From Escherichia coli O127:H6 str. E2348/69 (GTDB taxonomy: Bacteria > Pseudomonadota > Gammaproteobacteria > Enterobacterales > Enterobacteriaceae), in assembly GCF_000026545.1 (NCBI RefSeq), contig NC_011601.1: a DNA stretch of 64,000 nt, one strand, 5' to 3'. The position numbers and the translations under genes are program-made. This document shows, piece after piece, positions 15,951 to 19,972 of this stretch. The number at the start of each line of letters is the position of its first letter. Position 1 is the first letter of the stretch. The notes under the pieces were generated by a model. It was given only the letters and a program-made list of their open reading frames with translations. It was not told where the DNA came from and ran no database searches.

Positions 15951-16136
15951 CTTCCTCTCTGGCCGGAGAAATCCCGGCCTTATCCCTCAAATTTTTTGAA
16001 AATATTTGACAGTTTTCCTTGCTAACAATCACGCTTCGTCACGTTTATGATTCTCTCCATCGACAGCAACGACGCTAATAGCGCGCCCTTGCACAAAAAA
16101 ACAATCAGCAGCCTGAGCGGCGCAGTGGAGAGTATG

Positions 16137-16529
16137 ATGAAAAAATTAGAAGATGTTGGTGTACTGGTAGCGCGTATTTTAATGCCGATTCTGTTTATTA
16201 CGGCAGGCTGGGGAAAAATTACTGGCTACGCGGGTACCCAACAATATATGGAAGCAATGGGCGTCCCCGGCTTTATGCTGCCGCTGGTGATTCTGCTTGA
16301 GTTTGGTGGTGGTCTGGCAATCCTGTTCGGTTTCCTGACACGTACCACAGCCCTGTTTACTGCGGGCTTTACGCTGCTGACGGCATTTTTATTTCACAGC
16401 AACTTTGCAGAAGGCATGAACTCGCTGATGTTTATGAAAAACCTGACTATTTCTGGCGGATTCCTGCTGCTGGCAATTACCGGTCCAGGCGCATTCAGCA
16501 TCGACCGCCTGCTGAATAAAAAGTGGTAA
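16137..16529 (+). CDS. yqjF: DoxX-family membrane protein
   Basis: ORF 16047..16529; internal Met gives 130 aa. Confidence 0.85.
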   Translation: MKKLEDVGVLVARILMPILFITAGWGKITGYAGTQQYMEAMGVPGFMLPLVILLEFGGGLAILFGFLTRTTALFTAGFTLLTAFLFHSNFAEGMNSLMFMKNLTISGGFLLLAITGPGAFSIDRLLNKKW

Positions 16530-16598: not shown

Positions 16599-17585
16599 AT
16601 GGGTCAACTGATTGACGGCGTCTGGCATGACACCTGGTACGATACCAAATCCACCGGCGGTAAATTTCAACGTTCAGCTTCCGCATTTCGTAACTGGCTC
16701 ACTGCCGATGGCGCGCCAGGCCCCACTGGCAAAGGCGGTTTTGCCGCAGAGAAAGATCGTTATCATCTCTATGTTTCACTCGCCTGCCCGTGGGCACACC
16801 GCACGCTGATCATGCGTAAGCTCAAAGGACTGGAACCGTTTATTTCCGTTTCCGTAGTGAACCCGCTGATGCTGGAAAACGGCTGGACCTTTGATGACAG
16901 TTTTCCGGGAGCAACCGGCGACACGCTCTATCAACATGAATTTCTGTATCAGCTTTATCTCCACGCCGATCCACACTACAGCGGACGAGTGACTGTTCCC
17001 GTGCTGTGGGACAAAAAAAACCACACCATCGTCAGCAACGAATCAGCAGAAATCATACGCATGTTCAATACCGCGTTTGATGCGCTGGGTGCGAAAGCTG
17101 GAGATTACTACCCACCAGCCCTGCAACTGAAAATTGACGAACTTAACGGCTGGATTTACGACACCGTTAACAATGGCGTGTATAAAGCCGGTTTTGCCAC
17201 CAGCCAGCAAGCCTACGACGAGGCGGTGGCGAAAGTGTTTAAATCGCTGGCGCGACTGGAACAGATTTTAGGTCAGCACCGTTACCTGACCGGCAACCAG
17301 CTAACCGAAGCCGATATTCGCCTGTGGACCACGCTGGTGCGTTTTGATCCAGTGTATGTGACCCACTTCAAGTGTGATAAGCACCGCATCAGCGATTACC
17401 TGAATCTGTATGGCTTCCTGCGCGATATCTACCAGATGCCGGGAATTGCCGAAACAGTCAATTTCGATCACATCCGTAATCATTACTTCCGCAGCCATAA
17501 GACCATCAACCCTACGGGGATTATTTCAATTGGTCCGTGGCAGGATCTCGATGAACCGCATGGACGAGATGTTCGCTTCGGTTAA
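16599..17585 (+). CDS. yqjG: Glutathionyl-hydroquinone reductase (Xi-class GST)
   Basis: ORF 16578..17585; start at MGQLIDGVWHD gives 328 aa. Confidence 0.9.
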   Translation: MGQLIDGVWHDTWYDTKSTGGKFQRSASAFRNWLTADGAPGPTGKGGFAAEKDRYHLYVSLACPWAHRTLIMRKLKGLEPFISVSVVNPLMLENGWTFDDSFPGATGDTLYQHEFLYQLYLHADPHYSGRVTVPVLWDKKNHTIVSNESAEIIRMFNTAFDALGAKAGDYYPPALQLKIDELNGWIYDTVNNGVYKAGFATSQQAYDEAVAKVFKSLARLEQILGQHRYLTGNQLTEADIRLWTTLVRFDPVYVTHFKCDKHRISDYLNLYGFLRDIYQMPGIAETVNFDHIRNHYFRSHKTINPTGIISIGPWQDLDEPHGRDVRFG

Positions 17586-17635
17586 AAAAAGGCACCTTAC
17601 GAGGTGCCTCTGATAATTAGCTAAGTACGTGTTGT

Positions 17636-17745
17636 TCATGTCGGATGCGGCGTAAACGCCTTATCAAACCTACAAAACATTTATATTCAATATGTTGCAA
17701 TGACCGCGCAGGCCAGATAAGCGTAGCGCATCTGGCAATTTTGCG
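17636..17745. repeat. REP (repetitive extragenic palindrome) elements
   Basis: gtcggatgcggcgtaaacgccttatc and gcaggccagataagcgtagcgcatctggc motifs. Confidence 0.75.
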
Positions 17746-17867
17746 CTTGCCCTTATCCTTCACAGCGCCTTATTAATTCATCGCGATAATATTTACTGCC
17801 ATTTCATTCACGTCTATTCTTAATTTGCTGCTTTAAAAACAAGTGATTGAGCAAAATTGAGGCAAAA

Positions 17868-18236
17868 ATGGACTGGTATCTGAAAGTACTAAAAAATTAT
17901 GTCGGTTTCCGGGGGCGTGCGCGGCGCAAAGAGTACTGGATGTTTATTCTGGTCAACATCATCTTTACGTTCGTGCTGGGGCTACTGGATAAAATGTTAG
18001 GCTGGCAACGTGCCGGTGGCGAAGGCATCCTGACGACAATCTACGGTATTCTGGTGTTTTTACCATGGTGGGCAGTTCAGTTCCGCCGCCTGCACGACAC
18101 CGACCGCTCGGCGTGGTGGGCACTGCTATTCTTAATCCCGTTCATCGGCTGGCTTATTATCATCGTCTTTAACTGCCAGGCGGGTACGCCAGGCGAAAAC
18201 CGCTTTGGACCAGATCCGAAACTGGAACAAGAATAA
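17868..18236 (+). CDS. yhaH: DUF805 inner membrane protein (YhaH/YhaI family)
   Basis: ORF 17847..18236; hydrophobic; only one DUF805 gene present, so assignment to yhaH rather than its paralog yhaI is uncertain. Confidence 0.6.
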   Translation: MDWYLKVLKNYVGFRGRARRKEYWMFILVNIIFTFVLGLLDKMLGWQRAGGEGILTTIYGILVFLPWWAVQFRRLHDTDRSAWWALLFLIPFIGWLIIIVFNCQAGTPGENRFGPDPKLEQE

Positions 18237-18269
18237 TAATTAAGCACCTTGTAAAAGGTGCTTAATCGA

Positions 18270-19166
18270 TTATTTTCCGCTAAAAAGTTTGGGAATTTCC
18301 CGCAGACACCAGGATTTCGCCTCCCCCATACTGTCACGACGCCAGGCCATAATAATATCGATCTCGCTGGTCGATTCCGGGCTGACGACACGCAACCGCC
18401 CTTCCGCAATATCTTTTTCGACCATCGGATACGGCATCGTCGCCACGCCAAGCCCCGCCAGTAATGCCTGACGTTTATCTTCAATCGTGCTCACCGTTAA
18501 GCGCGGCTGTTTGTCCAGCAACTGTACGGTCAACACCGGGCGCTCACGAGCGGTATCCGCCACCGCAATTCCACGATATTTCACGCGCGTCACTTCAGAT
18601 AACGGTTCCGGCTCCTGATGAATCGGGTGATCCGGCGCGGCAACATAGACGTTCATTAAGGTATAGAGTTTGCGCGAGTTGATCTCCGACGAGGAACGAA
18701 AATGCATATCCGGCGCGATAACGATATCCGCCCGCCCCTGCTCCAGCCGTTCCCACGCCCCCGCCAGCACTTCGGTGATAATTGCCAGTTGGGTATTGGC
18801 TTTTGCCGCCAGTTTGTCGATTAACGGGAAAAAGGCAGGTGTCGGTACCAGCGCCTCGGTCACAATGGTGAGATGCGTTTCCCAACCGCGCGCGAGGGCT
18901 TCCGCATCGGTAGTCAGTTTATCTGCGGCTTCCAGCAAAACGCGCCCTCGTTCCAGCAACATCCTCCCGACATTGGTGAATTTGGTGCGATGGCCCGAGC
19001 GGTCAAACAGCACCACATCCAGCTCTTCTTCCAGTTTTTGCATGGTGTAGCTAAGTGCGGAAGGCACGCGTCCCAGCTCATCCGCCGCCGCCGCAAAACT
19101 GCCCCGGCGATCGATCGCATCCATAACCCGTAGTGCTTCCAGCGTTAATGCCCTTTCTTTGGCCAT
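18270..19166 (-). CDS. yhaJ: LysR-family transcriptional regulator
   Basis: 298-aa ORF, N-terminal HTH; divergent from yhaK. Confidence 0.9.
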   Translation of the reverse strand: MAKERALTLEALRVMDAIDRRGSFAAAADELGRVPSALSYTMQKLEEELDVVLFDRSGHRTKFTNVGRMLLERGRVLLEAADKLTTDAEALARGWETHLTIVTEALVPTPAFFPLIDKLAAKANTQLAIITEVLAGAWERLEQGRADIVIAPDMHFRSSSEINSRKLYTLMNVYVAAPDHPIHQEPEPLSEVTRVKYRGIAVADTARERPVLTVQLLDKQPRLTVSTIEDKRQALLAGLGVATMPYPMVEKDIAEGRLRVVSPESTSEIDIIMAWRRDSMGEAKSWCLREIPKLFSGK

Positions 19167-19270
19167 TTCGTTCTCATTCAGGAAATTTGAACATACCGGG
19201 CAGAATATCTGGCTAACAATGTAGCGTCCAGCCCCTTACCATAAAAGGAAGTAAAGAGAGGTCAAGAATT

Positions 19271-19972
19271 ATGATTACTACCCGAACTGCCAGGCAGTGT
19301 GGACAAGCAGACTACGGATGGTTGCAGGCCCGGTATACTTTTTCCTTTGGACACTACTTCGACCCGAAATTGTTAGGCTATGCCTCCCTGCGCGTGCTTA
19401 ACCAGGAAGTGCTGGCCCCAGGTGCCGCCTTTCAGCCGCGAACCTATCCCAAAGTCGATATTTTAAATGTGATTCTGGATGGAGAAGCTGAGTATCGCGA
19501 CAGCGAAGGCAATCATGTTCAGGCCAGCGCTGGTGAGGTGTTACTGCTCTCTACCCAGCCGGGTGTCAGCTATAGCGAACACAATCTCAGCAAAGACAAA
19601 TCGTTAACGCGAATGCAACTTTGGCTGGATGCCTGCCCACAACGAGAGAATCCGCTGATTCAAAAACTGGCGCTTAATATGAGCAAGCAGCAATTAATCG
19701 CCTCGCCAGAAGGTGGGATGGGAAGCCTGCAATTGCGCCAGCAAGTGCGGCTGCACCATATCGTGCTCGACAAAGGCGAAAGTGCGAATTTCCAGTTGCA
19801 TGGGCCACGCGCGTATTTGCAATCGATTCACGGGAAATTTCATGCGCTTACGCATCATGAAGAGAAAGCGGCGCTAACCTGCGGTGATGGGGCGTTTATT
19901 CGTGACGAGGCTAACATTACGCTGGTTGCCGATTCCCCACTGCGCGCTTTGCTGATAGATTTGCCTGTCTAG
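19271..19972 (+). CDS. yhaK: Pirin-like bicupin protein
   Basis: 233-aa ORF; synteny. Confidence 0.9.
   Translation: MITTRTARQCGQADYGWLQARYTFSFGHYFDPKLLGYASLRVLNQEVLAPGAAFQPRTYPKVDILNVILDGEAEYRDSEGNHVQASAGEVLLLSTQPGVSYSEHNLSKDKSLTRMQLWLDACPQRENPLIQKLALNMSKQQLIASPEGGMGSLQLRQQVRLHHIVLDKGESANFQLHGPRAYLQSIHGKFHALTHHEEKAALTCGDGAFIRDEANITLVADSPLRALLIDLPV

Follow-up and report, generated by a model that had tools for sequence, protein, structure and literature searches.

A yhaH-only arrangement between yqjG and yhaJ in Escherichia coli E2348/69 and its relation to the two-gene arrangement of K-12

The yqjG-yhaJ interval of E2348/69

The window, a stretch of 64,000 nucleotides from the chromosome of Escherichia coli O127:H6 str. 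E2348/69 (NC_011601.1), carries one gene of the DUF805 family between yqjG and yhaJ, as an earlier note on this DNA had proposed from the letters alone. The left flank is formed by yqjG, encoding a glutathionyl-hydroquinone reductase (positions 16599-17585, plus strand), and the right flank by yhaJ, encoding a LysR-type regulator (18270-19166, minus strand); both are given by the open reading frame list and the RefSeq annotation, and their products share 98% and 100% amino acid identity, respectively, with YqjG and YhaJ of K-12. The sole open reading frame with a protein-family match between them spans 17847-18236 on the plus strand, and its product scores 120.9 bits (cut-off 25.7; E = 4.6e-35) with the Pfam profile DUF805 (PF05656), all 111 positions of which are covered. 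Searches by tblastn with YhaH and YhaI as queries found no second DUF805 gene in the whole 64-kb window. The gene order is yqjG-yhaH-yhaJ, with yhaH the first gene downstream of yqjG on the same strand, preceded by a conserved upstream region and convergent with yhaJ.

The boundary at 17847 is a mechanical TTG start that lies upstream of the annotated coding sequence. Translation of yhaH likely begins at the ATG at 17868, because a GAGG ribosome-binding site, read from the sequence (17859-17862, plus strand), stands 5 nt before it, the RefSeq start coincides with it, and all orthologs begin with MDWY. The coding sequence (17868-18236, plus strand; RefSeq CDS WP_001314179.1) has a GC content of 52% and encodes a DUF805 inner-membrane protein of 122 amino acids that ends in KLEQE, with three hydrophobic segments (residues 22-46, 54-72, and 80-107) and an invariant RRLHDTDRS motif. 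K-12 shows no difference in the 90 bp that precede the ATG. A promoter scan of 17500-18400 returned no sigma-70-like site at its threshold; a candidate seen by eye upstream of yhaH, TTTACT-17 nt-TATTCT, agrees at 8 of 12 positions and falls below the cut-off. On the other side of yqjG, the mechanical yqjF open reading frame (16047-16529) encodes 160 amino acids and is thus 30 residues longer at its N-terminus than the annotated DoxX protein of 130 residues; the 160-residue form is also called in one annotation of E. marmotae.

The spacer between yqjG and yhaH (17586-17867) is 282 bp long in E2348/69, compared with 121 bp in three E. marmotae loci (L088-L090) and 11 bp more than the E2348/69 length in K-12. 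It contains REP/BIME-like repeats at 17634-17745, an extent read from the sequence, and the repeat part of the query matches 2-9 places per genome (for example, query positions 235-278 in H40). Rfam, which holds no general REP model, gave a weak match between 17634-17670 and the REP-derived naRNA4 (27.6 bits, below the gathering score of 59.5; E = 0.027), and its search of 17000-19300 returned two sub-threshold matches only. E. marmotae, unlike E2348/69, is without the REP-like repeats upstream of yhaH, and the content of such repeats in this spacer differs among lineages. A published survey of the y-ome likewise describes yhaH as 'surrounded by repeat sites' and its neighborhood as an uncharacterized cluster (PMC11551758).

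On its 3′ side, yhaH runs into a 40-bp sequence (18229-18268) that pairwise alignment with K-12 marks as specific to the single-gene allele and that comprises the QE codons at the end of yhaH, a pair of stop codons, and a terminator-like hairpin. The hairpin (18239-18266) consists of a perfect 12-bp stem, formed by the inverted repeat 18239-18250/18255-18266 with 100% complementarity, and a 4-nt loop; in E2348/69 its sequence, AAGCACCTTGTAAAAGGTGCTT, lies directly 3′ of the KLEQE-ending yhaH. It folds at -21 kcal/mol (z = -6.8), a stability reached by none of 200 shuffles, and a pattern scan found a terminator-like pattern, a GC-containing stem-loop with a T-run behind it, at this position on both strands. 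The hairpin is probably a bidirectional intrinsic terminator, predicted to serve the convergent yhaH and yhaJ in common.

Identity of the gene and comparison with K-12

The earlier note had placed two tandem paralogs, yhaH and yhaI, in K-12, and this is borne out by MG1655, in which the locus reads yqjG-yhaH-yhaI-yhaJ (b3102-b3105) and the two DUF805 genes encode 121 and 118 amino acids. The case that the note had named as contrary to its finding, a single gene in K-12 as well, therefore does not apply. The alignment and phylogeny that the note had proposed for assigning the remaining paralog give a clear answer: the E2348/69 gene is the yhaH ortholog. Its product is identical to K-12 YhaH at 120 of 121 aligned residues and shares 56% identity with K-12 YhaI, and in a neighbor-joining tree it forms a clade with the YhaH proteins of K-12 and E. 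albertii in 100 of 100 bootstrap replicates. It falls outside the clade of YhaI-type proteins, whose members are characterized by an NVIQ..G.E.P motif region and a length of 118-119 amino acids and whose bipartition also received 100/100. This fixes as yhaH a gene that RefSeq labels in E2348/69 merely as 'DUF805 domain-containing protein'.

Unequal recombination between the two paralogs could in principle have left a hybrid yhaH/yhaI gene in E2348/69, and such a mechanism has a precedent at this very locus. The single gene of Citrobacter amalonaticus ku-bf3 (L014) combines a YhaH body with a YhaI-type tail, KQNEMR, and a yhaI-type terminator, and the intact YhaI carried by other C. amalonaticus strains (P0103) ends in KQNEIN; the ku-bf3 gene is a hybrid (yhaH::yhaI) of the kind that remains when recombination between tandem copies removes a paralog. 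For E2348/69, a hybrid origin is nevertheless refuted by the residue-by-residue alignment, as the protein follows K-12 YhaH over residues 1-120 and ends in KLEQE rather than FGSN, and the hairpin is unrelated to the yhaI terminator. No trace of yhaI was found in the E2348/69 gene, and both parts of the chimera signature, the YhaI-type tail and the GGGGCaATAT..GCCCC terminator, are absent from the locus.

The DNA of E2348/69 aligns collinearly with that of K-12, at about 98% identity, as far as position 18228 in yhaH, and the alignment picks up again at 18269, the base adjoining the yhaJ stop codon. The two arrangements are alike in their flanking genes, their spacer with REP-like repeats, and YhaH itself; they differ in that the 40 bp of E2348/69 correspond to 652 bp in K-12 (positions 2341-2992 of locus L001). 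The K-12 segment comprises a short yhaH terminator, a spacer, yhaI preceded by an upstream region of its own, and a separate terminator, so that yhaH and yhaJ lack the common hairpin present in E2348/69, and K-12 YhaH ends in KLEP as opposed to KLEQE. At 37%, the GC content of this segment (45% in the yhaI coding sequence and 28% in the spacer) contrasts with 51-55% in yhaH, yqjG, and yhaJ. The 40 bp resemble the 652-bp segment no better than by chance (local score 17, shuffle mean 18), and the alignment indicates that the alleles differ by replacement, not by a simple insertion or deletion. Deletion between short repeats was considered as a source of the junction, the suspected pair being AACAAGAATAATAA in E2348/69 and AACAATAATAAAT where the K-12 segment ends on the right; it was rejected because the real score was equalled or exceeded in 210 of 300 shuffles.

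These comparisons bear directly on the two mechanisms that the earlier note had offered, paralog loss and gain by tandem duplication: the difference from K-12 is real, but neither mechanism fits it well. Gain through a recent yhaH duplication on the way to K-12 would suit two adjacent genes of the same orientation and the same Pfam family, yet it is refuted to the point of being highly improbable by the 56% protein identity of the paralogs, by the alignment of the whole K-12 segment, with its GC content of 37%, to gaps, by the lower GC content of yhaI (45%, as opposed to 52% in yhaH), and by the grouping of YhaI with YhaI-type proteins of other genera (100/100) rather than with E. coli YhaH. 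Simple loss of a paralog is not supported either, as the 40 bp are unlike any part of the K-12 segment and the same junction occurs in Escherichia other than E. coli.

Distribution of the two arrangements and of YhaI-type genes

In a set of 5,426 complete E. coli genomes, the yhaI segment is present in 4,409 (81%) and a 69-bp junction of the E2348/69 type in 991 (18%), leaving about 26 (under 1%) with neither, at least one of which, TBU0218_10-1CC, has lost both genes. Junction carriers include E2348/69, F11, EC958, and 83972, which belong to phylogroup B2, as well as PCN033. IAI39, which belongs to phylogroup F, close to B2, has yhaH together with a YhaI identical to that of K-12, and strain E50 joins a left flank like that of E2348/69 to a yhaI of the second allele class described below, a combination which shows that the yhaI segment moves between backgrounds by homologous recombination. 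In yhaH and yhaJ beside the K-12 segment, divergence from E2348/69 is not raised, at 1-4 differences per 100 bp. One of the 991 junction matches lies on a plasmid-labelled record, probably a mislabelled or misassembled replicon.

The recurrence of the junction in 991 complete genomes also reduces to a negligible probability the reading that the single gene is an assembly or annotation artefact, with the paralogs collapsed or one of them missed. No evidence in favor of such an artefact was found; the complete E2348/69 chromosome matches the gene and its surroundings, 1.1 kb in all, at 100% identity, the stop codons of yhaH and yhaJ stand 33 bp apart, the window has no second DUF805 reading frame, and paralogs with 56% amino acid identity are too different to be collapsed by an assembler.

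Two allele classes of yhaI occur in E. coli, with about 2,100 genomes at least 95% identical to K-12 and about 2,300 at 80-95%. When positions 2690-2890 of the K-12 locus (L001) were compared with three other loci (L083, L084, and L085), nucleotide divergence between the classes came to 20-31% across a mid-gene tract of about 200 bp and to 0-5% on either side of it; their proteins are 85% identical. From its sequence, the mid-gene tract of the second class looks like an imported mosaic. Gene conversion from yhaH was rejected as its source, the residues of the second class being unlike those of YhaH. Several strains (H10, H41, and AR202.2, locus L086) carry IS1 in the AT-rich spacer between yhaH and yhaI, and in TBU0218_10-1CC (L087) IS1 stands where both genes have been lost, an IS1-associated loss which implies that yhaH and yhaI are both dispensable in nature.

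Outside E. coli, a scan anchored on YhaJ, with one genome per species and without E. fergusonii, covered 80 loci in Enterobacteriaceae, of which 69 have one DUF805 gene between yqjG and yhaJ, eight have none, and three have two (Citrobacter sedlakii, Huaxiibacter, and one Lelliottia). E. albertii (L003), three further Escherichia loci (L004, L006, and L007), and E. marmotae (L088-L090) all have a yhaH ending in KLEQE followed by the same hairpin as in E2348/69, with no yhaI at the locus. Escherichia sp. MOD1-EC7003 (L005) has lost most of yhaH but keeps its last ~35 bp and the same hairpin, the remnant being joined to the REP region that follows yqjG. In E. albertii, L004, and L006, a BIME of ~170 bp (a REP pair) lies between two copies of the hairpin, of which E2348/69 has one; either insertion of the BIME may have duplicated ~24 bp, or the E2348/69-type allele may have arisen by recombination between hairpin copies. 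The KLEQE ending is confined to Escherichia, and other genera have KTLP, KQLP, KLNP, or KLQP, which the P-ending, 121-residue YhaH of K-12 resembles in both its length and its ending.

A few loci show further arrangements. In Huaxiibacter chinensis (L058) and Lelliottia sp. WAP21 (L059), the gene adjoining yhaJ encodes a third type of DUF805 protein that is neither YhaH nor YhaI. Four loci (L022, L023, L026, and L033) have yqjG directly beside yhaJ with no DUF805 gene, and another (L048) has ~2 kb free of DUF805 genes between the two.

The YhaI-type clade (100/100 by neighbor joining) unites both E. coli YhaI alleles with proteins of other genera, namely the product of the second gene of C. 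sedlakii, those of C. amalonaticus, C. rodentium, and Superficieibacter, and that of the single gene of Intestinirhabdus alba. The tandem yhaH-yhaI of C. sedlakii and the lone yhaI of I. alba occupy the same slot between yqjG and yhaJ, in which E2348/69 has no YhaI-type gene, and the yhaI segments of K-12, C. sedlakii, and I. alba have in common a GGGGCaATAT..GCCCC terminator beside yhaJ. Because the clade spans genera and the terminators are homologous, the duplication that separated YhaH from YhaI is ancient. E. coli YhaI is 59-66% identical to the YhaI of Citrobacter and Intestinirhabdus, compared with 85% for YhaH and its C. sedlakii ortholog, and the closest relatives of YhaI outside E. 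coli and Shigella stand at 60-68% identity. No donor of the E. coli yhaI was identified among these relatives, and nothing lies between 68% and 77% identity; three matches at 77-79% (P0081, P0059, and P0113) were discarded as donors, being frameshifted or garbled sequences of the second E. coli class.

Origin of the two arrangements and regulatory context

Taken with the comparisons above, this distribution makes it moderately probable that yhaH alone is the ancestral state in Escherichia and that lineages of the K-12 type gained an old, divergent yhaI by import. The yhaH-only state is probably ancestral because the junction occurs in Escherichia other than E. coli, because a single DUF805 gene is usual across Enterobacteriaceae (69 of 80 loci), and because YhaI forms an old, separate clade. 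Under this scenario, yhaH with the common hairpin would be the ancestral Escherichia arrangement, retained in E2348/69; a lineage of E. coli would have imported an existing AT-rich yhaI segment in place of the 40 bp, and the segment would then have spread among phylogroups by homologous recombination. Both the direction of change and the mechanism of import are the most likely ones to be drawn from the distribution, and K-12 most likely represents the derived state at this locus.

Some observations fit this gain less comfortably. The P-ending YhaH of K-12, like that of other genera, suits a two-gene ancestor in which KLEQE arose by deletion or replacement, and homologous import across genera should have raised the divergence of the flanks, which is not raised; this would call for a closely related donor outside the sampled genomes or for junctions formed by illegitimate recombination. 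The presence of yhaI in IAI39 makes a single clean gain after the split of B2 too simple, so that recombination or a long-lived polymorphism is needed.

The same observations can be accommodated by an old loss, a possible but rather unlikely alternative in which the Escherichia ancestor had both genes, as C. sedlakii does, and a single deletion with filler DNA created the allele with KLEQE and the hairpin, which was kept or was spread by recombination in the lineages outside E. coli and in B2 while most E. coli retained both genes. In C. sedlakii and I. alba, yhaI and a terminator homologous to that of K-12 are found at the corresponding position, which fits such vertical descent, as do the Escherichia-specific KLEQE beside a K-12 YhaH of the length and ending usual elsewhere, the undisturbed flanks of the K-12 segment, and the yhaI of IAI39, and losses of DUF805 genes at this locus do occur, as in MOD1-EC7003, ku-bf3, and TBU0218_10-1CC. 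Nevertheless, an old loss requires that the two-gene allele was lost or replaced in every sampled lineage of Escherichia outside E. coli, and the 40 bp are not derived from the K-12 segment, so that the event was no plain deletion. The weaker conservation of YhaI (59-66% identity to the YhaI of Citrobacter and Intestinirhabdus) than of YhaH (85% to its C. sedlakii ortholog) and the 37% GC of the segment also speak for import rather than for descent from a two-gene ancestor.

The difference is an ordinary accessory-gene polymorphism between E. coli lineages, already visible in public annotations, and the value of describing it is mainly one of housekeeping; it opens no major question. Its practical side concerns regulation, as yhaI is modulated by Cpx in K-12 (PMC2731931) and is activated 36-fold by Ler in enterohemorrhagic E. 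coli, where it is the only gene outside the LEE in the Ler-activated set that does not belong to a mobile element (PMC3891560). Thus yhaI can figure in the Ler regulon of EHEC but cannot be a target in the EPEC strain E2348/69, from which the gene is missing, and regulon or y-ome lists based on K-12, such as those with a Cpx-modulated yhaI, cannot be carried over to genomes with the junction, which make up 18% of the complete E. coli set. Strong activation of the AT-rich yhaI by Ler would fit acquired DNA silenced by H-NS.

Searches of PDB sequences, NCBIfam, and PADLOC matched YhaH to no solved structure, NCBIfam equivalog, or defense-system model; the NCBIfam matches were sub-threshold, PADLOC gave none, and the PDB search gave only chance-level matches to cytochrome b (E about 0.09). 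YhaH thus shows nothing out of the ordinary for a DUF805 protein. An old label of yhaI as a 'putative cytochrome' finds no support in such chance-level cytochrome b matches. The only other family match was to a family of phage 'moron' membrane proteins, phrog_12855.

A broader and doubtful reading, to which we assign a low probability, is that the short gap between the DUF805 gene and the yhaJ stop codon may be a recurrent landing site at which divergent DUF805 segments are swapped across Enterobacteriaceae. It builds on the occurrence of at least three protein types in the slot, on gene numbers of zero, one, or two, and on the two yhaI alleles of E. coli that are 20-31% apart over 200 bp. If true, a landing site of this kind would suggest that selection on these small envelope proteins is diversifying or frequency-dependent, as it might be if they interact with phages or toxins, with which the occurrence of DUF805 proteins among phage 'moron' genes and the control of yhaI by Ler and Cpx would be consistent.
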